Source of the DNA: an uncultured Pseudomonadales bacterium
GTDB lineage: Bacteria; Patescibacteriota; Microgenomatia; UBA1400; PJMF01
Length of the DNA stretch: 64,000 bases
Assembly: GCA_964406075.1 (NCBI GenBank)
Contig: CAYOQI010000001.1
Location: 197,015 to 261,014, forward strand
Direction of reading: 5' to 3'
Both the position numbers and the translations under genes were made by a program. The notes beneath the pieces were generated by a model. The model made no database searches and was not told the DNA's origin. It was given only the letters and a program-made list of their open reading frames with translations. This document shows, in pieces, positions 4,056-64,000 of this stretch (the stretch's first letter is position 1; every line of letters begins with the position of its first letter).

Positions 4056-5417
4056 ATGAACGTTTTTCGCGCCAAGACGTATGCTTTTTGTGGTGGAGCA
4101 TTTGGAGATGAAGGCAAAGGACGGATCGTCGATATGATCGCGCATGATCTGTCGATACATGGTCCCGTTGTGGTCTATCGGGACAATGGAGGTGCGAATG
4201 CGGGACATACCGTGGAGTTTTCTAATGGCCAACGGGTAGCACTTCATCAACTTCCGTCTGGTGTCTTTATCAAACGGACCACAGTAGTCTTGGGAAAGGA
4301 AATGGTCCTGCATCCTGGTGATTTAATTACTGAACTTGATCAAGTCATGAATGTCTCAGTCGTGACCGATCGCGCTACAATTTTGATCGACGAACTAGCC
4401 CTGCTCTCCCTCGATACACATCGAGCCTACGAAAGTGTGCTCAAACAATGGCAGTCTGGAGGAAAAGGCTCAACTGGTCGTGGAGTGTCACCAGCGTATG
4501 CCGACGTCTTGTTGAGACATCCACTCAGAATGCGAGATCTCATTTCATTTGATGAGAAAAAAATCACTCAACATTATGAAATGTACACAGCGCTCATAAA
4601 AGGTCTGGGAGAAAACATGGAAAAATTAACTGTGGCTACTTTAGCTGGAGAAAGTATCGTTGTTGGGAATTTACCAACCTTTTTAAAACGGTTGAAGAAA
4701 CAAGCCGATCAACTCAGAACGTATGTAGACAATGTTCAGGAATTTTTGCAAAAAAAATGGAAGGATAAAAAAGTCGGCTTTGTCTTTGAAAAAGCCCAAG
4801 CCATCGGGCTCGATTTTCGGTGGGGTGTCTATCCTGACATTACAGCTTCAGACACTACTTTTGACGGAATCTTTTCTGCTACTCAAGGTGTGATTGATCC
4901 TGATCTGATCAAAATGAAGGCTGGCGTCATCAAAGCTACCTATATGTCCAGTGTTGGAACACGCAAATTACCGACTGAAATAAAAGGAAAACTGGCAGAA
5001 CGCATTCGTGAGGATGCACACGAGTATGGAGCGACAACAAAAAGACCGCGTGATATCGCCTATCTTGATTTGCCAGCTCTGAAATTTTTCAGCAAAGTTG
5101 GACGTCTCAATAGTTTGGTTTTAACTCACATGGATGTCTGCTATCCTGATCAGCCCATCCAAGTCTGTATCAAGTATCAAGTAAAAGGGAAAACAGTGGA
5201 GTATCAACCCGACCAACTCTTTTTGAATTCAGTCAAACCAGTGTATAAAAAGTTTGCCCCATGGAATGTTGAAAAGTTAAGAAAGGCTCGCAATTTTGAC
5301 GAACTCCCAAGTCAGGCAAAAAAGTTCCTTCAATTTTTATCCATCCAATTTGAAATGCCAATTACCTGGATCACGACAGGACCACAGCGAGAACAAGGAA
5401 TAAAAATAGAGCTTTAA
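4056..5417 (+). CDS. purA: adenylosuccinate synthetase
   Basis: GDEGKGRIVD P-loop, GGANAGHTV and GATTKRPRD motifs. 453 aa. An AAAGGAAAA purine tract precedes the ATG. Confidence 0.9.
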   Translation: MNVFRAKTYAFCGGAFGDEGKGRIVDMIAHDLSIHGPVVVYRDNGGANAGHTVEFSNGQRVALHQLPSGVFIKRTTVVLGKEMVLHPGDLITELDQVMNVSVVTDRATILIDELALLSLDTHRAYESVLKQWQSGGKGSTGRGVSPAYADVLLRHPLRMRDLISFDEKKITQHYEMYTALIKGLGENMEKLTVATLAGESIVVGNLPTFLKRLKKQADQLRTYVDNVQEFLQKKWKDKKVGFVFEKAQAIGLDFRWGVYPDITASDTTFDGIFSATQGVIDPDLIKMKAGVIKATYMSSVGTRKLPTEIKGKLAERIREDAHEYGATTKRPRDIAYLDLPALKFFSKVGRLNSLVLTHMDVCYPDQPIQVCIKYQVKGKTVEYQPDQLFLNSVKPVYKKFAPWNVEKLRKARNFDELPSQAKKFLQFLSIQFEMPITWITTGPQREQGIKIEL

Positions 5418-7733: not shown

Positions 7734-8777
7734 ATGCATTCGACGGATATTCGGACAGTTCAACAACTTGAAAGTTTTTTGCACTCAAAAAAGCTCACAT
7801 GGAAAGAGTGTGGACTTCCTGACCCTACACTTTTTGACGAAACATTTCCCGTTCGAATTCCGCTTTTCTATGCGAATTTAATTGATTGGAAAAATCCTAA
7901 TGATCCATTACGGTTAATGGTGATTCCAGATCAAAATGAAAAAGATATTAAAGAATATGAACTGCTCGACCCTATTGGGGATACTTCACACGAACCCGTA
8001 CCCGGACTCATTCACCGATACCCTGATCGCTGTCTCTTCCTCTTCACGACACATTGTGCGGTGCATTGTCGATTTTGTTTTCGACGCGATGTGATCGGAC
8101 AACCACGTCCCGCGGAAATTTTGAATGCGATTGAGTATATTAAAAATCATACGGAGATTCGAGAAGTTATCTTTACCGGTGGAGATCCTGGAATATTCCC
8201 GGCTGGATTTTTAGAAAATATTTTTCAAAAATTATCACCACTTTCCCATGTGAAAGCGATTCGATTTCATACTCGGGCGCTTGTTAGCAACCCAGTAGGG
8301 ATAACGCCAACGTGGATTACATCATTTGATCTATTATCCCAACAAAAAGTAGTTGTGCTTCACATCAATCATGTTCGGGAGATTTCAGAAGAATTAAAAA
8401 CTCTGGTTCAAAATTTACTTAAAAATAATTTCAAAATGTATTCACAAAGTGTGTTACTCAAAGGTGTAAATAACAGTTCCGAAGATTTGAAACAACTGTT
8501 CTTAGGAATTGTCGATGCTGGTATCACTCCTTATTATCTTCATCATCTCGATTATGCCCGCGGGACACATCATTTCAGAATATCAGTGGAAGAAGGAAAA
8601 AAGCTTTTTTCAAGTTTACGTGGAAAAATTGCAGGTTATGCTCTGCCGGAATATGTGATTGATTTACCCGGAGGCGATGGAAAGTATCCCGTTTTGTGGA
8701 TGAAAAAATTAGAGGGAAATATGTATGAGGCAAAAAGTTGGAATGGCGAAAAAGTTATATACCGAGATCAAGCATAG
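7734..8777 (+). CDS. KamA-family radical SAM protein (lysine 2,3-aminomutase / EpmB-like)
   Basis: CAVHCRFCFRR (CxxxCxxC cluster), PGLIHRYPDR and FTGGDP, as in the KamA/YjeK family. Confidence 0.85.
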   Translation: MHSTDIRTVQQLESFLHSKKLTWKECGLPDPTLFDETFPVRIPLFYANLIDWKNPNDPLRLMVIPDQNEKDIKEYELLDPIGDTSHEPVPGLIHRYPDRCLFLFTTHCAVHCRFCFRRDVIGQPRPAEILNAIEYIKNHTEIREVIFTGGDPGIFPAGFLENIFQKLSPLSHVKAIRFHTRALVSNPVGITPTWITSFDLLSQQKVVVLHINHVREISEELKTLVQNLLKNNFKMYSQSVLLKGVNNSSEDLKQLFLGIVDAGITPYYLHHLDYARGTHHFRISVEEGKKLFSSLRGKIAGYALPEYVIDLPGGDGKYPVLWMKKLEGNMYEAKSWNGEKVIYRDQA

Positions 8778-9195
8778 TTTTTTTTAATACTTCAATATCT
8801 TTGCGAGTCACCACAGACAATGGTAACTTTTCTGCTTCATCAAGTGTGAACCACCCAATCTCATCGGTTTTTCCAGGTTCCATGATGGAAGGAGTCCCTT
8901 CAACAATCTCACAAATATAACTCGGTGCCACCCAATGTTGTTTTTCGTCTGGAAGAATGTGATCGGTAAGATGAAGTAATTTTTTGACTTTTATTTTTAT
9001 TCCAAATTCTTCAAAGGTTTCGCGGATGATTGCTTGCTCGAAGGTCTCACCAAATTCAAGCGCACCACCCGGAATTTCCCACTTCCCTCGTTCGTTTTTG
9101 GCCAGAGGTCCACGTTTTGACAAAAAAACTTTCCCATCTGAATTGACAAGAATTGCACCTACTCCCACACCAATGAAATCAAGACCTGGTTTCAT
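8755..9195 (-). CDS. NUDIX hydrolase
   Basis: Nudix box GGALEFGETFEQAIIRETFEEFGI. Confidence 0.85.
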   Translation of the reverse strand: MKPGLDFIGVGVGAILVNSDGKVFLSKRGPLAKNERGKWEIPGGALEFGETFEQAIIRETFEEFGIKIKVKKLLHLTDHILPDEKQHWVAPSYICEIVEGTPSIMEPGKTDEIGWFTLDEAEKLPLSVVTRKDIEVLKKTMLDLGI

Positions 9196-9198
9196 ACA

Positions 9199-10236
9199 TT
9201 AAAAAATCCTACGGATTTTTGCCCAAATACGAAGGAATTTCCAACGAATATTCTCTGCAAAACGATAGAAAGAATAAATCGGCGGATTTAGTACAAGATC
9301 GTATGTTCCGAGAAACTCATAGAGCTGAGGTCCATAGCCTTCTTTGAAACGATGAAAGCCATACCACGGATCTTTTTCATTCGGATTTGGCCCTAATGCT
9401 CCCCACATATCAAACTTTTTTAATCCCATACTTTTTCCAAATTTAATAATTTCCCACATCATCAGATTACTCGCCATCACATCTCTATGTTCAGAACTTG
9501 AAGCTCCGTATGGATAATAAAGAGTATCGCCAAAAATAAACACAATCCAACTTACCAGGGGCTTCCCTTCGTAATGTGCCTCAAAAATACGCATCTGACC
9601 GGACTCACCCATTTGATCCCACATTTTTCTAAAATAGGTTTGATTGTGAGCGTAAAAACCTTGGCGTTTGGTCGTCTCAGCTAAGATATTGAGATGAGTC
9701 TCAACTCCTTCTTTGGTCGAGTTTTCAAAAATCTCAACACCCTTTTTTTCAGCTAAATTGACGTTGTACCGAGTCTTTGATTTCATGAGCTCCATCAATT
9801 TTTGTTCAGACTGGGTCAGATCTAAAATAAAGGTATAGCGAGTGAAAAGCGCCTTACCTGGCTGACAACCATGCTCAGTCAAAAAATCTGAAATAGCTTG
9901 ATGTCCAGATGGATGTCCTATTTCTTGAGCAATATTAGGTTCCAATTTGATTGCAATTGCATTGTGACGTTTTCCTAATTGTTGAAGACCCGTGAGCTGC
10001 TCCTCATCCGGCATATAGCCTTTTGGAAAATAGCCCATCGTAAAAGAGGTGTTCGGAATTTTATGAAAAAAGACCTGAATCACTCTTTTCATTTTTCCAT
10101 TGTCAAAATATCCCACCCGCTCAACGTCGGTCGTATCATTTTTTTTGAACTCTCCCCATTGCCATGACTGCAGAGGATGACCGGCTAAGTCATTGTGAAG
10201 CTTTTGATCTTCGAGAGTGAGGACGCGCAAAATCAT
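9199..10236 (-). CDS. FemAB-family peptidoglycan bridge-formation (aminoacyl)transferase
   Basis: Length and motifs resemble FemX/FemA (YHAHNQTYF, YYPYGASS, MWEIIKFGKSMGLKKFDMWGA). Start placed at MILRVLTLED. Confidence 0.75.
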   Translation of the reverse strand: MILRVLTLEDQKLHNDLAGHPLQSWQWGEFKKNDTTDVERVGYFDNGKMKRVIQVFFHKIPNTSFTMGYFPKGYMPDEEQLTGLQQLGKRHNAIAIKLEPNIAQEIGHPSGHQAISDFLTEHGCQPGKALFTRYTFILDLTQSEQKLMELMKSKTRYNVNLAEKKGVEIFENSTKEGVETHLNILAETTKRQGFYAHNQTYFRKMWDQMGESGQMRIFEAHYEGKPLVSWIVFIFGDTLYYPYGASSSEHRDVMASNLMMWEIIKFGKSMGLKKFDMWGALGPNPNEKDPWYGFHRFKEGYGPQLYEFLGTYDLVLNPPIYSFYRFAENIRWKFLRIWAKIRRIF

Positions 10237-10355
10237 AGTGATATGGTAGCATGCCAAAACCAGAGGAGGAAGTGTTTACTTCAGAAAACTTCTTCAGCTT
10301 TTTTTCAACACATCTATTACACTAGTTAGTAGATTAACAATTCACATTTTTGTAC

Positions 10356-11423
10356 ATGAAAAAAATTCTTCCACTTCTTCTCGTTATTCTTTTCTTAGCT
10401 ATTGGTGGAGTGATCCTGACTCGATCAAATCTTCTCAAAAATGCTGGGTTCGAAACCGATAACTTGAATGACAGTCTTGATAGTTTGGTTGAACAACCGA
10501 TTCAAGAAGTCATCGAACAACTTCATCCCTTATCAATTGAGAATTTAAGACAAACTGAAACCCCTGGCAGTGAGTTTGTGATCGAAGAAACACTCACTCC
10601 TGGATCAAACTACAATCGATACCGAGTATCGTATCAATCTGATGGCTATAAAATTTATGCACTCTTAACAATTCCCAAAGGCACGAAACCTGAAACTGGT
10701 TGGCCGGTCGTAATTTTTAATCATGGCTATATCCCTCCCGCTGAGTATCGAACCACTGAAAGATATATCGCTTATACCGATGCTTTTTCTCGAAATGGAT
10801 ATATATTGCTTCGATCAGACTATCGTGGTCATGGCAGTTCGGAGGGACCAGCAACCGGTGGGTATGGATCAAATGGGTATACCGTCGATGTCCTGAATGC
10901 GGTGGCATCAATCAAAAAACACCAGGATGTCGATGTCAATCGAATCGGGATGTGGGGACACTCAATGGGTGGATATATCACGCTTCGGATCATGGTCGTG
11001 AATAAAGATATCAAAGCAGGTGTGATTTGGGCCGGAGTGGTGGCCTCGTATCCAGATTTAATCAATAATTGGCGACGACCAAATCGCTCCCCTTCACCAA
11101 ATGTGACACCTAACGCGAGAAGTTGGAGAAACCAATTGACCTCTCAATATGGTTCACCAGAATCAAATCCTGAGTTTTGGAATTCATTGTCGGCTAATTC
11201 TTATTTAAGTGATATTTCTGGACCAGTTCAACTTCATCACGGAACCGCAGACACTTCTGTCCCGGTAGAATTTTCTCAGACACTCGAAACTCAAATGGAA
11301 GCCGTGAGTAAACCAGTCGAACTCTTCATTTATCAGGGTGACGATCACAATCTGTCAAACTCATTCAGTGCTGCCATGAATCGATCTGTGCAGTTTTTTG
11401 ATGAACATGTAAAAGGAGAATAA
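10356..11423 (+). CDS. secreted alpha/beta hydrolase (S9 / dienelactone-hydrolase-like)
   Basis: N-terminal TM/signal segment, GHSMGG nucleophile elbow, late HHGTAD and DDHN. The ATG at 10356 follows a TTG listed in the track. Confidence 0.75.
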   Translation: MKKILPLLLVILFLAIGGVILTRSNLLKNAGFETDNLNDSLDSLVEQPIQEVIEQLHPLSIENLRQTETPGSEFVIEETLTPGSNYNRYRVSYQSDGYKIYALLTIPKGTKPETGWPVVIFNHGYIPPAEYRTTERYIAYTDAFSRNGYILLRSDYRGHGSSEGPATGGYGSNGYTVDVLNAVASIKKHQDVDVNRIGMWGHSMGGYITLRIMVVNKDIKAGVIWAGVVASYPDLINNWRRPNRSPSPNVTPNARSWRNQLTSQYGSPESNPEFWNSLSANSYLSDISGPVQLHHGTADTSVPVEFSQTLETQMEAVSKPVELFIYQGDDHNLSNSFSAAMNRSVQFFDEHVKGE

Positions 11424-12139: not shown

Positions 12140-12517
12140 ATGAATGAATCTAAGCAGATTACTTCATTTAAAGATTTACTTGTATGGCAACGAGCAGTCA
12201 TATTTGTTACAAAAATCTATACTTTAACTAATACTTTCCCTAAAACAGAAACATTCAGTTTGATTGATCAGCTCAGAAGAGCTGCAGTTTCCATTGCCTC
12301 TAACATTGCAGAAGGGAAACAAAGACAAACTAAAAAAGAGTATATCCAATTTCTTCATATTGCCTACGGATCATGTGCTGAGGTATATACACAATTAATT
12401 ATTTCAAAAAATCTCGGTTACTTTAATGAAAAATCTTTGAACAATTTCTTGGATGAACTTCTTGTTATAGAAAAAATGCTTTCTTCTTTAATCAAAAAAT
12501 TGAAATCTTTACCTTGA
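12140..12517 (+). CDS. four-helix-bundle protein (23S rRNA intervening-sequence protein family)
   Basis: FKDLLVWQRA...LIDQLRRAAVSIASNIAEG...YGSCAEV matches the family signature. 125 aa. Confidence 0.85.
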   Translation: MNESKQITSFKDLLVWQRAVIFVTKIYTLTNTFPKTETFSLIDQLRRAAVSIASNIAEGKQRQTKKEYIQFLHIAYGSCAEVYTQLIISKNLGYFNEKSLNNFLDELLVIEKMLSSLIKKLKSLP

Positions 12518-12552
12518 ACCTTACATCCTGCACCACAAACCTTTCCTTTTCA
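12511..12552 (-). repeat. Heptad array; plus strand reads ACCTTGA ACCTTAC ATCCTGC ACCACAA ACCTTTC CTTTTCA
   Basis: Read directly. It overlaps the TGA stop of the four-helix-bundle gene. It is the complement-orientation partner of 12097-12126. Confidence 0.75.
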
Positions 12553-12644
12553 GGTTCCCTTCAGCTCATATCGTATAATTGAGCCTAGAGAAGAGTGTGT
12601 CAATTTCTCCCCTCTTCCATTTTTTAGATAAAAAAGGTCCAATT

Positions 12645-13316
12645 ATGCGAATACTTGTCATCGAGGATGAACATCGAATTGCCAACACAATTAAAAAAGG
12701 GTTGGAGCAAGAAAAGTATGCGGTCGATGTCACGTATGATGGTGAGACTGGATTGACGATGGCATTTGGTGAAGAGTACGACATCATCCTGCTCGATCGC
12801 ATGTTACCCGGAATCAATGGGGTGCAAGTAGCCAAAGAACTTCGAGATAAAAAACTTCATACGCCTATTTTGATGTTAACCGCCAAAGGTGAAGTTTCGG
12901 ATAAAGTCGAAGGTCTCGATTCTGGAGCCGATGACTATCTCACTAAACCTTTTTCGTTTGATGAATTATTAGCGCGAATTCGAGCACTCACTCGCCGCCC
13001 TTCTAACGTTTTAGAAACAGTTTTAAAGATTCAAGATCTTTCTCTGAATACCACTACCTTTGAAGTATCACGAGCCGATCAACATATTCAGCTGTCCACT
13101 AAAGAATTTTCTTTACTGGAATACTTACTCCGTCACGCTGAAACCACAGTTACGAAAGATCAAATTATCCAACATGTTTGGGATTATGATGCTGATGTTT
13201 TACCAAATACAGTAGAAGTGAATATTAAAAATTTACGCAATAAAATTGATAACCCGTTTAAAGATAAACCAAATTTAATTCAGACTGTTAGAGGCTTTGG
13301 ATATAAATTAGGATAG
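12645..13316 (+). CDS. OmpR-family response regulator
   Basis: Receiver domain (ILVIEDE, DIILLDRMLPG, LTAK) plus a winged-helix C-terminus (RGFGYKL). Start placed at MRILVIEDE. Confidence 0.9.
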   Translation: MRILVIEDEHRIANTIKKGLEQEKYAVDVTYDGETGLTMAFGEEYDIILLDRMLPGINGVQVAKELRDKKLHTPILMLTAKGEVSDKVEGLDSGADDYLTKPFSFDELLARIRALTRRPSNVLETVLKIQDLSLNTTTFEVSRADQHIQLSTKEFSLLEYLLRHAETTVTKDQIIQHVWDYDADVLPNTVEVNIKNLRNKIDNPFKDKPNLIQTVRGFGYKLG

Positions 13317-13321
13317 GTTGT

Positions 13322-14350
13322 ATGTTCGAAAGCGCCCGACTGAAGCTCACCTTGTGGTATTTGCTCATCATCATGTTGATTAGTTTGTGTTTTAGCATGG
13401 TGATTTATGGTTTACTTTCTCGCGAAGTCGAACGATTTGCCTCACTTCAACGGGTGAGACTCGAAAAACGATTTCAAGATGTCTACGTCTTTCAGCCAGG
13501 TGCTCAACAACCGAATCCTGTCCTGGTAACCATTTCCGAAGAGGATCTTGTTCAAGATCTCAAACAAAGACTGATTAATATCTTGATTGTGGTGAACAGC
13601 ACCATTTTCATTGTTTCTGGTGGCATTTCGTATTTGTTCGCTGGAAAAACACTTCGCCCTATTAAAGATATGGTGAATGAACAACATCGCTTTATCAGTG
13701 ATGCATCGCATGAATTTCGTACTCCATTAACCTCACTTCGTAGTGCCTTTGAAGTCTACCTTCGTGGAAAACAATCGCTGATTGAGGCGAAAGTTGTGAT
13801 AACCGAAAGTTTGGACGAGGTAAAAAAACTTCAACAACTCTCAGACTCACTTCTCCAGCTCGCTCAATATCATAAACCAAATGGTCACACTCTTTTTGAA
13901 AAAATTTCTCTTGATTCCACTATTTCAACAGCACTTCGCCGAATGAAACCGATTGCGGTTCAGAAAGATATTCAACTTCAGTATGAGAAACAGGAGTTTT
14001 CCGTCATTGGAGATAAAGATAGTTTGACCAATTTATGGGTGATTTTGATTGATAACGCCATTAAATATAGTCCTGAAAAATCAATCATAAAATTTTCTAC
14101 GGTGAAAAAAGATGGATATGTTTTGACCACAATTCAGGATCAAGGCATCGGCATTGATGAAAAAGCTTTACCTCATATTTTTGATCGCTTCTATCGGGCA
14201 AATTTAGCCCGCAGTAGAAATGGCGCTGGTGGTTATGGACTGGGATTATCAATCGCAAAAAAAATTGTTGACCAGCATAAAGGGAGTATCATTGCCAAAA
14301 GCAAACCGAATGAAGGCACAACCTTTACTATTAAACTTCCCGTAAAGTAA
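13322..14350 (+). CDS. sensor histidine kinase (HisKA + HATPase_c)
   Basis: H-box SDASHEFRTPLTSL, N-box IDNAIKYS and G-boxes DQGIGI / GYGLGLSIAK. Two N-terminal TM helices. Confidence 0.9.
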   Translation: MFESARLKLTLWYLLIIMLISLCFSMVIYGLLSREVERFASLQRVRLEKRFQDVYVFQPGAQQPNPVLVTISEEDLVQDLKQRLINILIVVNSTIFIVSGGISYLFAGKTLRPIKDMVNEQHRFISDASHEFRTPLTSLRSAFEVYLRGKQSLIEAKVVITESLDEVKKLQQLSDSLLQLAQYHKPNGHTLFEKISLDSTISTALRRMKPIAVQKDIQLQYEKQEFSVIGDKDSLTNLWVILIDNAIKYSPEKSIIKFSTVKKDGYVLTTIQDQGIGIDEKALPHIFDRFYRANLARSRNGAGGYGLGLSIAKKIVDQHKGSIIAKSKPNEGTTFTIKLPVK

Positions 14351-56259: not shown

Positions 56260-57342
56260 CTACGCTCCCACTACTCCACCTTTAAAGAAAATAATGAGAA
56301 ACAGGATCGTGATAAAAAGAGCAATGTGAGCAAAATTTTTCCCTACAAACCGAATCGTATTCAATTTTTCGATCACCATCGTATCGTAAATCAAGACGGC
56401 AATGACCAACAGCACGAGTGCCAAAAAGACCGCTTTTGAAAGGTGGAGAGGTGAAAAAAGTGGTGGACGTTCGATGTTTTGAATATACTCGACACTTTCT
56501 CTAAAAAGTTCTGGCGTGGCCAATACTTCAGGCTGTGCTTCCTCACTATTTTCTGTCATCACGGGCGGTTCCTGATCTTGACCGACAACTTCGTCGACTT
56601 GATTGATCACATCTTCTACTGCTTGCTCAGGATTTACCATTTCCCCAGTGACTTCATCAATAGCAGCTAAGGCTTGGGAATTTGCAACTGGAGCAGTCGT
56701 AGCTACAGGTTGAGGTGTTTTTTGCGGAGTGATCGCTCCCGTTCTACGAGTCGCGGCTGTACTTCCAAACATTTGAACTACCAACGTAGTCTCTGTTCCA
56801 TTGAGCACTCCATCGACCACCGCAATTCCAATTTCTTTATATCGAGTGTTCACAATATTTTCTTTATGGGTTGGCGAATTCATCCATGCTCTCATCATGT
56901 CTTCCGATTCCATAAAATCACGCGCCAGGTTTTCACCTGCAATAGTGTAACGATAGCCTGCCGTCTTCATGAACTGCCAAGGCGTTTTCCCTTTCGGCGA
57001 ATAGTGTGCCCAGTATTGATCAGCAAACATATCTCTGGCTTTGGCCAGTGCGGCATCACTCAGTTGTTTGTTGACGACTAATTCTCCCGTTCCAGCTTTG
57101 ACCCGTTCTTTATTGGTCAGCTCTACCACTTGAGTAGGAGTAATCGATGAAGAGTAGCCTAAAATTGTTCCTTGTTCAGACGACACACCACGAAGAATTC
57201 CGACTCCAGATCGAAAAATAACGACCAACAATAACAGAACTAGAAAACCTTCTGGATGCAAAATCCTCGGCCGATGATTATTCGAATGCCGAGGATGGAA
57301 AAGATGGGCAAATGTTTCAAAAACTTGCATGAATATATCCAT
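56260..57342 (-). CDS. CAP/SCP (YkwD-like) domain protein flanked by N- and C-terminal TM segments
   Basis: LTNKERVKAG...ARDMFADQYWAHYSP...AGENLA...AWMNSPTHKENI matches YkwD-type CAP domains. Start placed at MDIFMQ, because the track start at 57393 uses the CAT of an R1 repeat. Confidence 0.8.
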   Translation of the reverse strand: MDIFMQVFETFAHLFHPRHSNNHRPRILHPEGFLVLLLLVVIFRSGVGILRGVSSEQGTILGYSSSITPTQVVELTNKERVKAGTGELVVNKQLSDAALAKARDMFADQYWAHYSPKGKTPWQFMKTAGYRYTIAGENLARDFMESEDMMRAWMNSPTHKENIVNTRYKEIGIAVVDGVLNGTETTLVVQMFGSTAATRRTGAITPQKTPQPVATTAPVANSQALAAIDEVTGEMVNPEQAVEDVINQVDEVVGQDQEPPVMTENSEEAQPEVLATPELFRESVEYIQNIERPPLFSPLHLSKAVFLALVLLVIAVLIYDTMVIEKLNTIRFVGKNFAHIALFITILFLIIFFKGGVVGA

Positions 57343-57387
57343 TATGCTGAATTTTTTATCTGAAAACAAGGTATTTTTACAGTGTAA

Positions 57388-57420
57388 TGTCATCCCGACC
57401 GAAGTGGAGGGATCCCTGTC
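57388..57420 (+). repeat. R1-family hairpin repeat, short form
   Basis: TGTCATCCCGACCGAAGTGGAGGGATCCCTGTC. Confidence 0.65.
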
Positions 57421-57476: not shown

Positions 57477-58820
57477 TTAATTAATGCGAAATCTACGAAC
57501 TAACCCACGCCCCAACCAGCTCCCAATTCCTACTCCTCCAGCCAATAACCAATACCACTGACATAACCAGTGTAACCATGAGCCTGGTTCACAATCACAG
57601 CTACTTAACGTATAGAAAAAGTAAATGGAAGTCAGAATGAAAATAAAATCGGCACCAAGATGGAATGAATGTATTTTTTTTCGGAGTAATACATGATTTG
57701 CACCGTGACCAATTGCTTGTAGTAATAAAATAATGAGCGCCAGCCACATTCCATCCTGAGCACACTCCATCACTTCAGTCGCACTTGTTCCTAAAATAAA
57801 CGGAATAACTCCTGACAGAAATGGTTCTGGAGTGGGTGAGGGTTCGATTACATCTCCTAGTACTTCCCCATCGCTAAATCCAAGTGGAGCAGTAAAGGCA
57901 CCTGCAATAGCCGGTTGTCCTGTGGTCGCAACTTCATTCGATCGAGGTCCCGGTGCACATCCATTTATACCGAGTACTTGAAAGTAGTATTGAGTATTTG
58001 GAGTTAAGCCTGAAACTGTATAACTGGTCACATTGCCAACACTATTATTTCCAAATAAATAAACACCTGGTTGGACGCCAAAATTAATAGCATATGTCGT
58101 GACTGGTGAAACTGCTGACCATGCCAACGTCACTTGTCCATTCGCATTCACAATTCCCGGCACAAAAAGTTGAGGGGCAGAACTGGGTAGTTGATCGGTA
58201 CACGGTAGAGCAAAAGCATCCGTTGTCGTTCCGGCTACTGAGTTGAATGAGGTCGATGAAGTGGTTGAAATAGGCGTAGGTGTTGGAGGAGTCGGAAATG
58301 GTGTTAATTGAACTGCTACTTCAACATCAAATACGGTCTGTTTACCTTGAAATTGATTTCCCGAACTTGGATCAAATGTCGCAATGAACGCATATGTTTG
58401 AGTTTGTTGAGCAAGCAGGGGAGAGTAGGAGAGTAAGCTGGAAGAATTTAGTAAACTTTCCAAACTCTGAGAACTCATCACCACTTCCCCACTTTCTGTG
58501 TCTTTTCGAATTTCTATAAAAATTGCTGATGCCAAAGATTGATCGGTGACACCACTTGAACCCATCGCTTGCCAAGCCGGATACAAGGTCTCATTGGTCA
58601 TATTCGTAATAGCGAGGTGTTGAACAAATCTATCACCAGGTAATGTGTTCGTTTCTGAGAAAAGTTGGGCATTTGATGGAGTGATCACACAATCATCAAT
58701 TTCATTTGAACCAAAACAGATGACAGACAAATCTTGGCTTTGTGAGGATGCAAAAATCGGCTTGGTGAATCCAATGTAAAAAATAAAAAGGAAAATGAAG
58801 AAGGAAAAAAATTTAGGCAT
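57477..58820 (-). CDS. secreted TasA-like domain + Pro/Thr linker + fibronectin type III domain + Cys-rich 3-TM C-terminal anchor
   Basis: Signal peptide ...KPIFASS. LPGDRFVQHLAITN and GNQFQGKQTVFDVEVAVQ match the TasA/camelysin hallmarks PGD and QG...F.F.A.Q. FN3 signature VTLAWSAV...YTVSGLTPNTQYYFQV. The hydrophobic C-terminus contains CDCEPG/WLC. Confidence 0.65.
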   Translation of the reverse strand: MPKFFSFFIFLFIFYIGFTKPIFASSQSQDLSVICFGSNEIDDCVITPSNAQLFSETNTLPGDRFVQHLAITNMTNETLYPAWQAMGSSGVTDQSLASAIFIEIRKDTESGEVVMSSQSLESLLNSSSLLSYSPLLAQQTQTYAFIATFDPSSGNQFQGKQTVFDVEVAVQLTPFPTPPTPTPISTTSSTSFNSVAGTTTDAFALPCTDQLPSSAPQLFVPGIVNANGQVTLAWSAVSPVTTYAINFGVQPGVYLFGNNSVGNVTSYTVSGLTPNTQYYFQVLGINGCAPGPRSNEVATTGQPAIAGAFTAPLGFSDGEVLGDVIEPSPTPEPFLSGVIPFILGTSATEVMECAQDGMWLALIILLLQAIGHGANHVLLRKKIHSFHLGADFIFILTSIYFFYTLSSCDCEPGSWLHWLCQWYWLLAGGVGIGSWLGRGLVRRFRIN

Positions 58821-58890: not shown

Positions 58891-58911
58891 ATCTTGAATC
58901 TTAGATCTCAG
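58891..58911 (-). repeat. Heptad array; plus strand reads ATCTTGA ATCTTAG ATCTCAG
   Basis: Read directly. It overlaps the stop codon of 58908..59855. Confidence 0.6.
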
Positions 58912-59855
58912 TTTTGCCAATCAAGTGGAAACGTCAGAGTATCTGTAATTTCTTGATTGTTCAGTAATTCCAACGTGACGGTCAAGCCAGCGACTTCCAG
59001 GTGAGGATTGCAACTCTGTTCATCTTCGGTGCACGTCCCGACATAGACATCTGGCATTTCAAACTCACCAAACGCATCTCGTTCTATCTGATTGGTTACA
59101 ACTTCCTCCACTGTTTCTCCATCTTTGACATGAGTATAGGTAAAGGTTTGCTTGATCGAGGTAACCTCATCATTCATCAACACTTGAGAAAGTAAGAACT
59201 CTCCGAGCTGAGTAACTTTGACTCCTTTTTCATTCATCAATACTTTTTCGTATATTTCAGTTGCTCCAGCTTCTGTCTGTGCCCCTTCAAGAATTTGTGA
59301 ATAGGTTGCTGGTTTTTCACCGGTGATCATAGCGACATCTTGAAATCCACCTAAGACTTCACCTTGCCAAGCCTCAGCCATAATTTTCACTTCACATGCA
59401 TGTGTATTGTCAGGATAAATTAATTGGTACCACCACTGCGTTTCTTCTTCAGACAGTAAAGAAAATGCTTGTCCTTGCTCTTCAGCCAGAGAGAGTGCAG
59501 TCAGTTTTCCAGAAAAAAGTGGAGTATCATCCGAACTGTTTTTCCATACCTCGATGTTAATACCTTCACAATTCACATCAGGATCGGGAGTCACTTCCCC
59601 CACAATCCGATACACAAAAGGTCGAGATCCAATATTTTTCACCATAAAACTTGAACGTTCGTTTTGAGGGGAATCTGTTACTGCTAATCTTGAAAGGTTG
59701 GAAGTCAAAGAGGTAACTTCTATATCCAGTGAACCTGTTCCCCACTGACTCACTTCTCCAACTTCCCGATCATGTGAGTACGACAATGTAGTTGGGATGA
59801 GTATGCTCATGACCAACGCCAACATGCCAGTAATTCGAACAATATGTTTTTTCAT
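58908..59855 (-). CDS. secreted protein with a divergent TasA-like N-terminal domain and an extra C-terminal domain
   Basis: Signal helix, then SHDREVGEVSQWGTGSLDIEV (compare FSDTETSxxNxFxAGSIDL). The later CEVKIMAEAWQ resembles the F.F.A.Q end motif. Confidence 0.5.
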   Translation of the reverse strand: MKKHIVRITGMLALVMSILIPTTLSYSHDREVGEVSQWGTGSLDIEVTSLTSNLSRLAVTDSPQNERSSFMVKNIGSRPFVYRIVGEVTPDPDVNCEGINIEVWKNSSDDTPLFSGKLTALSLAEEQGQAFSLLSEEETQWWYQLIYPDNTHACEVKIMAEAWQGEVLGGFQDVAMITGEKPATYSQILEGAQTEAGATEIYEKVLMNEKGVKVTQLGEFLLSQVLMNDEVTSIKQTFTYTHVKDGETVEEVVTNQIERDAFGEFEMPDVYVGTCTEDEQSCNPHLEVAGLTVTLELLNNQEITDTLTFPLDWQN

Positions 59856-59950: not shown

Positions 59951-59999
59951 ATCTACTAAATACCAACTACTAATTACTAATTACTAATTACTACTTTCT
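59951..59999 (-). repeat. Heptad array with three perfect tandem AATTACT units
   Basis: ATCTACT AAATACC AACTACT AATTACT AATTACT AATTACT ACTTTCT. It overlaps the last codons and TAG stop of the signal peptidase gene. Confidence 0.8.
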
Positions 60000-60843
60000 T
60001 TTCTCCACCATCAATATGAAGAACGTGATTCATTTTTTGTTTCGCAAGTGTCTTCATGCTCAAAACAGGTGCCGGATTCAGTCGATGCGATTCGAGAGGT
60101 ATGAACGTAATCGGTTTTCTCGGTCGTCGAATTGAAACATCAGTTTCCGCAATGCTCCCAGCTTTTTTTGCTTCAACATGTTTTTTAACAACATGATGAA
60201 CGGCTACAGGCGTTTTAATTTTCGGTGTTTCGCCTACCTGTTTTCGACCTTGGGTGATGATCACCATTTGTTTGCCTTCAGCTTTCCATCCACTTTTGGG
60301 TTCCCGTTTTATCATTTTCACTACTTCACCTTTTATGGCGATCAATTCTGAATACAGCAAAATTGTTGCAGGCACCACGATCATGATGATGAATCCCATT
60401 TGTGTTTGAGCAAACGAAATAATGCGTCCGACATACGGAAGGTGAACAAACACTTTCCCCACCACTCTATTGGCTGGGATGACTTCCCGATCTATTTCTT
60501 CATTAGCATCACCTTTGAGCGTGTATTGAGGAGCACTTCCTTCTGTTTTTGAAACGATTCGATGCGTGACTGTTTCTGTCGGATCTTTCGCTCCTTGTAC
60601 CGTGATCACATCATTCACGGCATATGTTGACTGTGGCATCACAATCACCAAGCTTCCCATTGAGATGGCCGGCTCCATTGAGCCTGACAGCACCGCAAAA
60701 AGTTTTAGTTTAAAAGGGGTATTAATTGTTGAAAGAACAATCACTGCAGCCACCAAAACCATCAGCAAAATAAAGAGATTGTAGGAAATTCCTACAGCTC
60801 CTTTCACTACATTCGCCGGTGTCACTTTTCTGCCTGTTTTCAT
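59977..60843 (-). CDS. sipW: signal peptidase I, ER/archaeal (SipW) type, with a basic C-terminal tail of about 118 aa
   Basis: N-terminal TM segment, LSGSMEPAI (catalytic Ser box), THRIV (His box), KGDAN and a second TM segment. The tail covers residues 171-288. Confidence 0.85.
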   Translation of the reverse strand: MKTGRKVTPANVVKGAVGISYNLFILLMVLVAAVIVLSTINTPFKLKLFAVLSGSMEPAISMGSLVIVMPQSTYAVNDVITVQGAKDPTETVTHRIVSKTEGSAPQYTLKGDANEEIDREVIPANRVVGKVFVHLPYVGRIISFAQTQMGFIIMIVVPATILLYSELIAIKGEVVKMIKREPKSGWKAEGKQMVIITQGRKQVGETPKIKTPVAVHHVVKKHVEAKKAGSIAETDVSIRRPRKPITFIPLESHRLNPAPVLSMKTLAKQKMNHVLHIDGGEKKVVISN

Positions 60844-60850
60844 CCTATAT

Positions 60851-60913
60851 TCTTAAAATCTCGCTTCCTGTTTCTTTAATCTCTCATCTTAATTTTAACT
60901 GACCGTTACTAAC
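60851..60913 (-). repeat. Heptad array of about 9 units; plus strand reads TCTTAAA ATCTCGC TTCCTGT TTCTTTA ATCTCTC ATCTTAA TTTTAAC TGACCGT TACTAAC
   Basis: Read directly. It fills the intergenic region between paralogue P1 and sipW. Confidence 0.6.
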
Positions 60914-61784
60914 TCCCCGTTAAATCAGGATTACACACAAAGTCAGGGTTGTTTCTAGATTGTTCCGCATAGAAAGACACGTTTCCTTCCATACTATCTG
61001 TCTGTGACACATTCGTCACCAATATTCCTTCACACTCTAAGCCAGTCGTATTTCGGATCATCGGCCCTTCTGTTGTGAGATTATCTTGAGTTACTACTGG
61101 ATCAAGTGGCGCAAGTTCACCATAACACCATGCTTGTCCGATAAAGTACTCTTCCTCACCGGTCACTGGACCGGTAAAGTCATCCCCTGGTCCCGCCGTG
61201 CTTGCTTTCCAAATATTCAATGTTGTATCTGCGAGTGGGAAACGAATCCCGCCATTGTCATCACCTTGCAAAAATTCGGAAGCTTTTCCTGCAATCAAGA
61301 AACCGTCAGCTTCATTTTCTTCCAAAACGTTATCTCCATCATCTGCCCAGAACATATAGCTCAACTCGTCATCAAGTTCGCCATCCCAATTGCCATTGGC
61401 AAGATCATCACCGTCGTTCGTTTCAGGAGTGGTTGCGACATTTTCCGCAGCACCCGTGAGCTCGATATCCATACACAAGTATGAATCGTTGTCATCCACT
61501 CGTAAACTAATAGTATCCTCGGTCATGTCTCCGGGTTTGAAATCTTCAAGGTTAAAAAAAAGTTCATCTTCTAAATCCGTCAGGGACCAAGTACTTGCCG
61601 AAATCGAAGACACCAGTCCATCTCGGATCAGATAACTCGCATTACCAACTTTTAGATCAATTGATCCTGCCACAAATGTATTATTGGAAGAAGTCTCTGT
61701 ATCAGAGAAAAACGCTTGTGTGCCAAAGATGAGGGCACTGATCGCACCGACAATCAACACTCCACTTAAAAGTATTCTTCGCAT
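60909..61784 (-). CDS. TasA/camelysin-like secreted protein with a SipW-cognate-type signal (paralogue P1)
   Basis: MRRILLSGVLIVGAISALIFGTQAFFSDTETSSNNTFVAGSIDL, FKPGDMTEDTISLRV and SQTDSMEGNVSFYAEQSRNNPDFVC. Four Cys are conserved with P2 and P3. Confidence 0.8.
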   Translation of the reverse strand: MRRILLSGVLIVGAISALIFGTQAFFSDTETSSNNTFVAGSIDLKVGNASYLIRDGLVSSISASTWSLTDLEDELFFNLEDFKPGDMTEDTISLRVDDNDSYLCMDIELTGAAENVATTPETNDGDDLANGNWDGELDDELSYMFWADDGDNVLEENEADGFLIAGKASEFLQGDDNGGIRFPLADTTLNIWKASTAGPGDDFTGPVTGEEEYFIGQAWCYGELAPLDPVVTQDNLTTEGPMIRNTTGLECEGILVTNVSQTDSMEGNVSFYAEQSRNNPDFVCNPDLTGS

Positions 61785-62022: not shown

Positions 62023-62820
62023 TTAGGGTGCTACCTCAAATAACTCATCATTGCAGACAAATTGATTATTATTTCGATTTTGCTCAGCATAAAAAGTTAA
62101 ATCGCCGACTAATCGATCCGTTTGACTCAAATTACTTACCGGTGTTCCATCACATCCGTAACCTGGACCATTGATATCATTGTTGACTGAGAACTCTCCG
62201 TAGCAGAATGCTTTTCCGATTTTATAGACTTGTCCAGCATCGAGATCATCACCGGTACTATTTGTGAAAATGTTTTGCGTTGTATCTGCCAAAGCATACG
62301 TCGCTCCATCTAAAATATCACTGGCTGTGCCGGCTAAAAATGGTACTTCATCAGGATCTTGTTTATTGTTGTTGTGTAATTCCACCCAGAATCGAAATTG
62401 CAGATTTTCTGCTAAATCTCCATCGGGTGTGCCATCGGCATTATCAAGAAGGCTATCCATCATGTCTTCTGGCTCAGTAAAAGTGCTGTCAGAATTTTCG
62501 GTAAATTTTACATTCGCACATGCCCAAGCTGGATTGGTATCGACTTTGATACTAATGGTGTCATTTCCCCAGTCACCCGGTTTGAGATCAGTAAAATTGA
62601 AGAACTTCTCTACTCCAGTCAAGTCTTTGAGTTCCCAACTCGTTGCGACTGAAGGATTTCCAAGATAGACGCTTTCATTTCCGATTTGTAAATCAATTGC
62701 ACCAGTTTCAAATACATTCTCTTCGGAAGTTTCTGTATCAGAGAAAAACGATCTTGTTTGACTGACCAGTGCTCCTCCGATGATTGTGATAAGAAGCAAG
62801 CTGGTAAGTATTTTTTTCAT
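62023..62820 (-). CDS. TasA/camelysin-like secreted protein with a SipW-cognate-type signal (paralogue P2)
   Basis: MKKILTSLLLITIIGGALVSQTRSFFSDTETSEENVFETGAIDL, LKPGDWGNDTISIKV and SQTDRLVGDLTFYAEQNRNNNQFVC. Confidence 0.8.
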   Translation of the reverse strand: MKKILTSLLLITIIGGALVSQTRSFFSDTETSEENVFETGAIDLQIGNESVYLGNPSVATSWELKDLTGVEKFFNFTDLKPGDWGNDTISIKVDTNPAWACANVKFTENSDSTFTEPEDMMDSLLDNADGTPDGDLAENLQFRFWVELHNNNKQDPDEVPFLAGTASDILDGATYALADTTQNIFTNSTGDDLDAGQVYKIGKAFCYGEFSVNNDINGPGYGCDGTPVSNLSQTDRLVGDLTFYAEQNRNNNQFVCNDELFEVAP

Positions 62821-62880
62821 AGTACGTTGGGTGACGTAAATTTTATAAATTTGTAATGTGAAGTGTCTCGACTTGTGACT

Positions 62881-62901
62881 GCGGGCGCCCTTGGCGCCCG
62901 C
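62881..62901. other. GC-rich stem-loop between fibre paralogues P3 and P2
   Basis: GCGGGCGCC-ctt-GGCGCCCGC (9-10 bp). A T-run follows only on the plus strand (AATCTTTTT), whereas both neighbouring genes are on the minus strand. Confidence 0.6.
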
Positions 62902-62922
62902 AATCTTTTTCCAAATTTCTAC

Positions 62923-64000
62923 TTAATTTTCAAAATCAAAAACGGTGTTGTTACCTAACACACCAAGGGTGAACTTATCAATGTTTCCAGTGAAACCATC
63001 AGCATATGGTTCTCCTGCTCGGAAACCCCAGTGAGAGTCAGTCACTCGAACACGAACACTTGGATAGTCAGTTAAGATCTGTGTCCAGGTCTTAGGAGTT
63101 GTTCCAGGTTGTGCATTTGGAGCTGGCCAATTTGCACCTGAATATAACCATTGGGAACTTCCAAGAGCATCCCATTCTTGCCAAGTATCTTCTGAAACAC
63201 TACCGTTGGCACTTGGAACATAAACTAGACGACTCTGCCAAGTATCACTCAAGTTAAAATCAACGTTGAAGTTCAGATAGATTGCTCTTGTAGAAGCACC
63301 TGGATTTGAACTAGGTTGATATGTATTGAACTTCAGTGTGGTGATGTTCGCTAAAGGTGTTCCGGAAAACTGATATGTCGCTAAATTACGACGTTGAGTT
63401 CCAGAAACACTCATTTGAACACTGCCTGTTCCTGCTGGAGGAGTTCCAGGTCCTGCCACAAAGCTACCTAAAGTGGTATCCACTGTATCAGTTTCATCAT
63501 TATAAAAAACCCAATTGCTTGCACTTGGAGTTGCATCAACCGAAGTCACTTCCACGATTGTGTCCGGACTTGCACTCGGTGACGGACTCGGGCTTCCACT
63601 TGGTGATGGGAATAATGAATCCTCACATTGAAACTCTTCATTGTTTCGAGTTTGCACTGCGTAGAAAGACAAGTTTCCAACTAAGCGGTCTGATTGAGCA
63701 ATGTTGGTTGCTTCAGATCCATCACAAGTGTATCCAGGATTTGTAACAACATCACCTGAACCTGGTGCAACTGCGCCTAATGTTAAAGCTCCAAAACACC
63801 ATGCTTTCCCAATGTAGAATGACTGTTCGGCAGGAATACCTGCTGGGACAACTCCACCTACATTATTTTCATCTGAATCAGCAAGGGCGAGAGTTCCACC
63901 AGTTAAAACACCAGAAGCGGGTCCTTCTACAATAAGTGTTTCACCTGTCTCATAGACATTGTCGCCATCATCGTTCCAGAAAGCGAAATTGAGTTCATCA
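62923..64000 (-). CDS. TasA/camelysin-like protein (paralogue P3) with a Pro/Ser linker and an extra C-terminal domain of about 215 aa; 5' end lies beyond the window
   Basis: The track 'M' at 63672 is an in-frame TTG. I translated 63999..63673 with no stop codon: DELNFAFWNDDGDNV...SFYIGKAWCFGAL...SQSDRLVGNLSFYAVQTRNNEEFQC aligns with P1 and P2. The linker SPSGSPSPSPSASP follows, then an unrecognised domain. Confidence 0.75.
   Translation of the reverse strand, partial: DELNFAFWNDDGDNVYETGETLIVEGPASGVLTGGTLALADSDENNVGGVVPAGIPAEQSFYIGKAWCFGALTLGAVAPGSGDVVTNPGYTCDGSEATNIAQSDRLVGNLSFYAVQTRNNEEFQCEDSLFPSPSGSPSPSPSASPDTIVEVTSVDATPSASNWVFYNDETDTVDTTLGSFVAGPGTPPAGTGSVQMSVSGTQRRNLATYQFSGTPLANITTLKFNTYQPSSNPGASTRAIYLNFNVDFNLSDTWQSRLVYVPSANGSVSEDTWQEWDALGSSQWLYSGANWPAPNAQPGTTPKTWTQILTDYPSVRVRVTDSHWGFRAGEPYADGFTGNIDKFTLGVLGNNTVFDFEN

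Follow-up and report, generated by a model that had tools for sequence, protein, structure and literature searches.

The DNA analysed here (the window) is a stretch of 64,000 nucleotides (nt) from an assembly labelled as an uncultured Pseudomonadales bacterium and assigned by GTDB to the Patescibacteriota (GCA_964406075.1, contig CAYOQI010000001.1, positions 197,015 to 261,014 of the forward strand); it has a GC content of 40.3 % and contains no ribosomal RNA gene. Judged by the taxonomic labels of the homologues, the organism is probably a patescibacterium. At its far end, on the minus strand, lies the gene of a TasA-like protein, P3, in which the core of a predicted fibre subunit is followed by a linker and a large C-terminal domain (hereafter, the module). 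The P3 frame is open for 358 codons from its TAA stop to the window end, and the gene runs past this end, the first 130 residues being encoded outside the window. A profile search with the fused homologues described below retrieved from NCBI a protein of 488 amino acids (aa), P0386, that is 100 % identical to the entire P3 fragment and therefore supplies the N-terminus of P3. The parts of P3, numbered over the 488 residues, are as follows.

62923..62925, minus strand: P3 stop codon TAA, from the translation
62926..63564, minus strand: C-terminal β-jelly-roll domain of P3, a putative binding module (residues 276-488, 213 aa)
63565..63624, minus strand: interdomain linker of P3, EDSLFPSPSGSPSPSPSASP (residues 256-275, 20 residues), from the sequence
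63625..64000, minus strand: C-terminal half of the TasA-like core of P3 (residues 131-255 of 488), from the translation and the core hidden Markov model (HMM)
Residues about 1-23: signal peptide of P3, from the identical P0386
Residues about 24-255: complete TasA-like core of P3, with Cys at 100, 198, 222, and 255

Read in frame, the core ends in ...GNLSFYAVQTRNNEEFQC (the same reading may be written from the core end LSFYAVQTRNNEEFQC), is followed by the linker EDSLFPSPSGSPSPSPSASP, and passes into the module, DTIVEVTSVDATPSASNWVFYNDETD...GNIDKFTLGVLGNNTVFDFEN, which closes at the stop codon. The motif FYAVQTRNNEEFQC, common to the family, marks the end of the P3 core (63625-63666). Downstream of P3 on the same strand are two plain paralogues and the gene of a signal peptidase.

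62023..62820, minus strand: P2, plain TasA-like paralogue with a SipW-type signal, 265 aa (core HMM)
60909..61784, minus strand: P1, plain TasA-like paralogue with a SipW-type signal, 291 aa (PF12389, TIGR04088, and core HMM)
59977..60843, minus strand: SipW-type (archaeal-type) signal peptidase I (TIGR02228, NF046067)

P1 terminates in FYAEQSRNNPDFVC plus 7 residues and P2 in FYAEQNRNNNQFVC plus 9 residues, unlike P3, which runs on past the family end motif into the extra domain. This continuation had been pointed out in a preliminary description of the DNA and is confirmed by the translation; the distances of 8-12 residues given there for P1 and P2 are corrected to 7 and 9, the contrast with P3 being unaffected, and the domain put at about 215 aa does exist, with a length of 213 aa. 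At the opposite end, P0386 begins MRRLL...GTRSFFSDSESSVGNVFAAGTIDLK, and its N-terminus (MRRLLTSALLVVGAAGAVALGTRSFFSDSESSVGNVFAAGTIDLKIGN) resembles a SipW-type signal and, after it, the donor-strand segment of TasA, with the motif aligning to AFFSDTETSxGNxFxAGxIDL of relatives. A dedicated SipW-type signal peptidase is present in the P3 locus, scoring 81.4 bits with TIGR02228 (cut-off, 51.85) and 92.4 bits with the SipW model NF046067, below the equivalog cut-off of 190, and two related loci (L009 and L012, described below) are arranged alike. The peptidase is 288 aa long, and the family models cover only residues 19-184; its basic, Lys-rich C-terminal extension of roughly 100 aa has no equivalent in the 201-aa and 215-aa SipW proteins of L012 and L009.

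P3 is clearly a paralogue of P1 and P2, as judged from the identity of its core to that of P1 (43 %) and P2 (41 %). A core HMM built from relatives detected exactly three copies in the window, with E-values of 2.9e-47 for P3, 3.6e-85 for P2, and 5.2e-94 for P1. P1 is above the cut-offs of PF12389 (28.4 bits; cut-off, 22.5) and TIGR04088 (26.2 bits; cut-off, 19), and P2 is just below both (20.7 and 18.6 bits, respectively). Many close core relatives have a precomputed PF12389 match, and 785 proteins were matched in a search with the core of one relative. Several of these are entered as ‘TasA family protein [Patescibacteria group bacterium]’ or carry labels of Patescibacteria lineages. Among the proteins with the same fusion of core and module as P3 (described below), source names include ‘TasA family protein [Minisyncoccia bacterium]’, in other cases ‘SipW-dependent-type signal peptide-containing protein’, and, in JGI records, ‘predicted ribosomally synthesized peptide with SipW-like signal peptide’. 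P3 is best explained as a SipW-processed member of the TasA/camelysin-like family of fibre subunits, which is abundant in Patescibacteria (the Candidate Phyla Radiation, CPR). In the genome scan, the top identity among core relatives (50 %) belongs to a protein of L006 (CAZYTL010000006.1), part of a metagenome-assembled genome labelled uncultured Gammaproteobacteria; the family otherwise carries Patescibacteria labels, and mis-binning or horizontal transfer could be the cause. When metagenomes were scanned with the P3 fragment, nearly all matches were plain relatives of the core, none of them a closer orthologue. No metagenome contig matched in a scan for exact 40-mers, and exact look-ups of P2 and P0386 returned no record.

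The fold of the core was examined through P0127, a fused homologue among those closest in the core, which has 52 % identity to the in-window part of the P3 core. The AlphaFold2 (AF2) model of full-length P0127 has a predicted local distance difference test score (pLDDT) of 87 and two confident domains, with low-confidence stretches (pLDDT <50) at the linker (residues 269-281) and in the N-terminal segment (residues 21-37), the latter being compatible with a free donor strand but no proof of one. In a Foldseek search with this model, the TasA fibre structure 8aur_A was found at rank 9 (probability, 0.99; E, 2.4e-3; target-normalised template-modelling (TM) score, 0.43; identity, 13 %). Together with the SipW context, this weak match is supportive of a TasA fold for the modelled core.

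The fusion of core and module is a recurrent architecture. Profile and exhaustive representative searches yielded 55 fused sequences, which form about 46 clusters when grouped at 90 % identity; most are 476-551 aa long, and they are assigned to Patescibacteria wherever the source gives a name. A simple motif test found a SipW-like signal in 51 of the 55, and every one of them has the RNNxxFxC motif followed by a linker of variable length and sequence, and a module that ends 0-1 residues before the stop codon. The two-domain design seen in P0127, with two confident domains joined by a low-confidence linker, is kept in about 46 clusters. It might be argued that the extension of P3 is an artefact, in which a frameshift, a read-through, or an assembly join has brought together a TasA-like gene and a separate gene for a secreted protein; the commonest form of the module is indeed a stand-alone gene, and in L009, a Moranbacteria metagenome-assembled genome (CAVZUR010000004.1), core and module lie in two different frames. 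However, L009 has at least three TasA-like genes each split across two frames (8188-9118, 9581-11057, and 12486-13974), and with this kind of break recurring in at least two further TasA-like genes, the cause is probably indel errors in that assembly and not pseudogene formation. L009 was therefore rejected as evidence for two separate genes, the more so as in the Parcubacteria genome contig L001 the core is joined in frame to a copy of the module that has diverged further. In the window the reading frame is unbroken, the identical 488-aa protein is present in NCBI on a contig of 261 kb, the same plan is found in about 46 independent clusters as well as at the Parcubacteria locus, and the signal peptide of the stand-alone copies is missing from the fused ones. 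An artefact of the kind envisaged, against which the preliminary description had cautioned, retains next to no probability; with homologues showing in-frame fusion time and again, it is effectively excluded and the fusion is genuine.

With 199 homologues and a high-confidence all-β model, the module is not a chance open reading frame. Its composition (Thr, 12.7 %; Ser, 9.9 %; Gly, 8.5 %; Asn, 7.5 %; Trp, 3.8 %, corresponding to eight Trp residues; no Cys) and the AF2 model agree with the earlier remark that the region is rich in Trp, Asn, Gly, and Thr and looks β-rich. The model, built with an 82-sequence alignment, is an all-β jelly roll (pLDDT, 95.1; predicted TM score (pTM), 0.90; no segment below 50), rather than the disordered or low-complexity region that had been considered beforehand. 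In a Foldseek search against the PDB, the top match was the perlecan/laminin L4 (laminin-IV) domain (E, 7e-4; query-normalised TM, 0.46-0.49), and further matches were obtained to the carbohydrate-binding modules (CBMs) CBM61 (2xom), CBM11 (1v0a/6r31), CBM30 (1wmx), CBM4 (1gu3), CBM16 (2zew), and CBM22 (1dyo), with probabilities of 0.6-0.99, target-normalised TM of up to 0.55, query-normalised TM of 0.30-0.47, and identities of 10-15 %; E-values for the L4 and CBM neighbours ranged from 7e-4 to 5e-2. Against BFVD, the module matched uncharacterised viral proteins, CenC-like and ConA-like modules, and phage tail-fibre/receptor-binding proteins. As modelled, the module thus has a galactose-binding-domain (GBD)-like β-jelly-roll fold with no close solved relative, and shares the β-sandwich/jelly-roll fold of CBMs, so that the comparison with lectin and CBM folds suggested earlier gave a folded domain whose nearest structural neighbours include carbohydrate-binding modules.

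The sequence of the module is strongly conserved. In a word-indexed search, the 199 homologues had E-values down to 1.6e-82, and among the matches listed (the best 120 of the 199) the identity was 54-67 % over 84-100 % of the module. When the whole 358-aa fragment was searched exhaustively, 2014 representatives (clusters at 50 % identity) had E-values of 1e-3 or lower, 272 of them 1e-30 or lower; matches to the core only are included in both numbers. Twenty-five residues, four of them Trp, are invariant in the alignment; across 285 instances their conservation is 88-100 %, and P3 has the full set of 25; examples are (in module numbering) W18, D23, G38, P39, N100, Q110, R112, W128, W139, W146, D176, R182, Y187, G190, and F211. 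The signature of the family reads ‘WFFYNDETD...RVGEPY...FDFE’.

Since several of these invariant residues are polar (D23, N100, Q110, R112, D176, and R182, with E185 near-invariant), the module could be an unrecognised glycoside hydrolase, lyase, or other enzyme, carried on the fibre or on a SipW-secreted carrier; GH12, PL7, GH16-like proteins, and the NopAA xyloglucanase do appear low in the Foldseek lists, and the module co-occurs with β-helix/NosD domains. Set against the CBM and L4 matches, however, these enzymes have low probability or TM of only 0.2-0.3, and two to three tandem copies with neighbouring stalk domains are typical of binding modules. We consider a catalytic role very improbable.

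Outside the fused proteins, the module occurs most commonly in a secreted protein of 270-310 aa that consists of a signal peptide, the module, and a short Cys-containing tail (CKNGGW..FKNQG.CVSY). Most of the stand-alone homologues, such as P0001, P0002, P0006, P0009, and P0020, end in this conserved tail of about 30 aa, which has two Cys residues, the consensus K.QCKNGGW..F.NP.FKNQG.CVSY, and no Pfam annotation; it may be a small disulfide-bonded motif for anchoring or interaction. The tail is absent from P3 and from all TasA-fused copies. Source names of module-bearing proteins include Microgenomates, Roizmanbacteria, Chloroflexota, Thermomicrobiales, Vicinamibacterales, and Rubrivirga sp. 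IMCC45206; the family spreads over Chloroflexota, Acidobacteriota, the Rubrivirga sp. record, Patescibacteria, and others. In 145 representatives, proteins of up to 2705 aa carry one to three copies, in tandem where multiple; the module stands at the N-terminus in 58, within the protein in 72, and at the C-terminus in 24. A Pfam scan of 59 multidomain representatives identified the partner domains PG_binding_1 (12 of 59 proteins), SpaA (8), CarboxypepD_reg (7), Cohesin (5), Beta_helix (5), SdrD_B (4), Dockerin (3), LTD (2), and, in several of the 59, Ig-like (Big) domains, a set of stalk and anchor partners that is typical of cell-surface adhesins and scaffolds.

The same partners raise the question of whether the module serves for self-association within a matrix, cross-linking fibres with one another or with the wall of the producing cell for bundling or anchoring. 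PG_binding_1 is the most frequent partner, cohesin and dockerin occur too, tandem copies exist, and the cross-phylum identity of 54-67 % (among the matches listed) suits a universal self-polymer, e.g. peptidoglycan, over diverse host receptors; moreover, the best PDB neighbour, laminin/perlecan L4, is a module of the extracellular matrix. On the other hand, the proposal draws on partner domains, conservation, and fold likeness, the commonest form of the module is a stand-alone secreted protein lacking an anchor, and the function would still be binding, so that the proposal largely overlaps with the display of a binding module on a fibre. As a separate explanation, self-association appears improbable to us.

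How the module varies relative to the core was assessed by mean pairwise identity among 42 fused proteins. Residues 1-50 have the highest value of any region (59.5 %), followed by the core (50.3 %), the module (46.7 %), and the linker (24 %; 6 % for P3 versus the others). The check proposed in the preliminary description, whether orthologues vary more in the appended domain than in the TasA-like core, thus came out negative, module and core being similarly conserved, and the idea of the module as a diversifying, hypervariable adhesin head was rejected. The cores nearest to that of P3 (52-54 % identical) are followed by modules only 30-44 % identical to the P3 module, whereas stand-alone proteins and the module of the fused protein P0124 reach 67-68 % identity to it. 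Fused instances are scattered in nearest-neighbour lists and in a crude neighbour-joining tree built without bootstrap. A single origin of the fusion is unsupported in view of the scattered placement and the disagreement between core and module identities, which, given the lack of bootstrap values, are suggestive only; the sequences suggest repeated fusion or module replacement.

Appended domains are also not peculiar to P3. Among 118 close core relatives, the tail after the end motif is ≤20 residues long in 58, 21-60 in 16, and 61-200 in 44; modules of more than 60 aa are thus appended in 44 of the 118 (about 37 %), and at least eight kinds can be told apart among the long tails, a MAM-like and a SpaA_2 module being two of them. 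Because modules are common among core relatives and related loci are similarly ordered, P3 looks like one instance of a general modular design and not like a unique special subunit. In L009, too, one paralogue of 444 aa ends in a different C-terminal module, and another TasA-like paralogue has a DUF642-like insertion inside the core.

Taken together, we favour, with moderate confidence, the view that P3 is a polymerisable fibre subunit that displays a binding module, whatever its position along the fibre. TasA itself polymerises by inserting its N-terminal donor strand into the next subunit (PMC9674648). In the proposed mechanism, SipW would cleave the signal peptide from P3, the TasA-like core would polymerise through N-terminal donor-strand exchange, either alone or with P1 and P2, and the C-terminal module would hang from the fibre surface by its linker. 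Through it, the fibre would acquire a binding capacity, which we infer to be directed most likely to a glycan or another conserved polymer of the cell envelope or surface. P3 and its fused relatives have the same N-terminal segment, resembling a SipW signal and donor strand, as the plain paralogues, and the loss of the donor strand that characterises tip adhesins of the FimH/PapG type is seen neither in P0386 nor in the fused relatives. The retained donor segment argues for an ordinary polymerising subunit in a decorated fibre, not for an obligate tip cap.

The preliminary description had gone further in proposing P3 as a candidate tip adhesin. A subunit with an appended module is what the data bear out, P3 being a paralogue of P1 and P2 with a genuine folded module behind a flexible linker; the word ‘tip’ is not borne out. 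A tip or initiator adhesin would be present once per fibre, at one end, presenting its module in the manner of FimH or PapG, or of the adhesin role proposed for initiators of the TapA/AbpB type, with P1 and/or P2 forming the shaft, and the presence of one module-bearing paralogue beside two plain ones would fit this arrangement, as would the position of P3 as the first gene of the cluster with a strong hairpin behind it. Furthermore, the C-terminal residues of Bacillus subtilis TasA lie at the inter-subunit interface (PMC9674648), so that a module might be tolerated only at a fibre end, and a strand-donating initiator with distal β-domains has already been proposed as an adhesin (PMC9245690). 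Nevertheless, P3 and all its fused relatives possess both a complete core and a donor-strand-like N-terminus, matching neither the donor-less design of tip adhesins nor the donor-strand-only design of TapA; other loci have two or three adjacent module-bearing paralogues, and the 11-kb contig of L012 showed no plain paralogue; and the module is no more variable than the core. For these reasons the tip position is unsupported, and we judge it unlikely that P3 is confined to one end of the fibre as a tip or initiator adhesin.

Several results weigh against P3 as a polymerisable subunit with a binding module, and are given here together. Full-length P3 (P0386) scores below the PF12389 gathering threshold (14.6 versus 22.5 bits, over residues 17-47 only) and below the TIGR04088 cut-off (17.2 versus 19 bits), and a phmmer search of the core against PDB sequences gave no link to TasA. 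Concerning the module, the likeness to CBMs is at the level of the fold only (query-normalised TM ≤0.5 in the PDB; identity, 10-15 %). No Pfam or NCBIfam family was found on it at E up to 0.1, either in P3 or in any of 82 relatives, and among PDB sequences phmmer found no relative, nor did the family profile yield anything at E up to 10. The domain, unrecognised in the preliminary description, is therefore not assignable by sequence to any described CBM family or lectin, and the profile searches called for there returned no relative. Gene neighbourhoods of three stand-alone homologues (L013-L017) have no conserved neighbours, and since they share nothing, no function can be deduced from them. 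By analogy with the TasA interface mentioned above, a bulky C-terminal module could hinder polymerisation or confine P3 to the fibre end. Finally, binding, ligand, and the fibre itself are in the present case predicted from sequence and models.

The remaining features of the locus are as follows.

62880..62902, either strand: perfect GC-rich hairpin, TGCGGGCGCC-CTT-GGCGCCCGCA, with a 10-bp stem of which 9 pairs are G-C, between P3 and P2
58908..59855, minus strand: divergent secreted protein, 315 aa (BLASTP E, 1e-6 to L012:7566-8243)
57477..58820, minus strand: secreted FN3 protein, 447 aa (fn3, 35.6 bits; BLASTP E, 2e-8 to L012:8215-9012)

The hairpin sits 21 nt past the P3 stop codon. Its T-run is on the plus strand, antisense to P3 and P2; on the coding strand, an A-run precedes the stem and a U-tail is lacking. 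Possible roles of the hairpin are those of a bidirectional terminator, an attenuator, or an element of mRNA stability that sets the ratio of P3 to P2. The product of 58908-59855 has a degenerate N-terminus of the SipW-signal/donor-like type (..LSYSHDREVGEVSQWGTGSLDIEV) and has a syntenic counterpart in L012, a 226-aa gene located after SipW; it has no Pfam or NCBIfam match and was not detected by the core HMM. In that of 57477-58820, an N-terminal β-domain is followed, after a Pro/Thr linker, by an FN3 domain, and the C-terminal region is hydrophobic and Cys-rich; the N-domain is syntenic with a 266-aa gene in L012. Both proteins may serve as accessory or anchor components, in a role like that of TapA. 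The gene that comes directly after the fibre locus on the same strand (56260-57393, minus strand) encodes a membrane-anchored CAP/SCP-domain protein (PF00188, 62.8 bits) with a long Pro/Thr/Gln-rich spacer.

Related loci have a similar order of genes, with the module-bearing paralogues first, SipW next, and the accessory genes last. In L012, SipW is followed by two divergent accessory genes that are weakly but significantly similar to 58908-59855 and 57477-58820, and in other loci two or three module-bearing paralogues stand side by side. Upstream of the fused homologue P0124 in L012, the gene at 4102-5391 encodes a 429-aa TasA-like subunit whose C-terminal module (...RKDGSAVLPARSNP...FVKLVDIS...DADGFDLDSIGAL) is of another kind and unannotated. 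This module is also found in P0339, P0347, and P0360; two different module-bearing subunits are thus present together in some loci.

Among known systems, the closest are TasA of B. subtilis and TasA/CalY of Bacillus cereus (PF12389; PDB entries 8AUR/5OF1), which, like the P3 locus, combine a SipW-type peptidase with several paralogous subunits. P3 resembles them in its N-terminus, which is similar to a SipW-type signal and donor strand, and possibly in the predicted jelly-roll core, the modelled homologue giving a weak match to 8aur_A. In contrast, the sequence similarity is limited to the first 40 or so residues, the core of the P3 family has four conserved Cys and the end motif RNNxxFxC, and P3 adds the 213-aa C-terminal module, whereas the characterised subunits of the TasA family (TasA and CalY) are, to our knowledge, single-domain proteins. 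No TapA homologue was recognised. TapA of B. subtilis and AbpB of Pyrobaculum are secreted accessory proteins with a strand-donating N-terminus and extra β-sandwich domains; AbpB has been proposed to act as an adhesin (PMC9245690). They lack the TasA jelly-roll core, whereas P3 has a complete core plus a module, and the modelled fold of the P3 module is GBD/CBM-like in contrast to the macroglobulin-like domain of TapA.

With FimH and PapG, P3 has in common the design principle of a polymerising, pilin-type domain fused to a separate receptor-binding β-sandwich domain. The proteins are, however, unrelated, the order of the domains is reversed (the lectin domain is N-terminal in FimH), and neither chaperone nor usher accompanies P3; FimH has no donor strand of its own and is thereby forced to the tip. 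With CBMs and L4, the module shares the β-jelly-roll fold (target-normalised TM, 0.48-0.55) and its use as an appended unit of extracellular multidomain proteins, but it is about 40-70 residues larger than the CBMs matched, with 10-15 % identity and no family match by sequence. The SpaA, SdrD_B, and Big stalk domains and the PG-binding anchors that accompany the module recall Gram-positive MSCRAMM and sortase-pilus adhesins. These adhesins, like flagellins whose outer domains vary, join interchangeable exposed domains to a conserved part that polymerises or forms a stalk; the comparison is one of analogy only, since there is no homology in the polymerising parts and the P3 module is terminal and tethered by a linker, not inserted.

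The TasA/SipW type of system is known, and its presence in Patescibacteria has been noted; the appended module belongs to no described family. In the literature on TasA-type fibres in Patescibacteria, CPR, or Saccharibacteria, the only remark found is that PF12389 homologues occur there (PMC9245690). Little is known of how the ultrasmall Patescibacteria recognise their hosts and attach to them, type IV pili being the only structures reported so far to be implicated by experiment (PMC11623550). As a possible though doubtful generalisation, SipW/TasA-type fibres with interchangeable C-terminal modules (the present one, MAM-like, SpaA-like, and at least five unannotated kinds) would constitute an adhesive organelle of Patescibacteria, distinct from type IV pili, by which episymbionts recognise and hold their hosts, and the 213-aa module would represent a new pan-bacterial family that binds glycans or cell envelopes. 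Because the module family is large and conserved and has neither a Pfam/NCBIfam model nor a solved relative, its definition would be useful, annotating hundreds of hypothetical secreted and surface proteins, and a polymerising subunit with a tethered module would be a useful design of a natural scaffold. As indicated by the about 46 related clusters, many Patescibacteria encode TasA-type subunits with appended surface modules, which makes these subunits a candidate second adhesive system.

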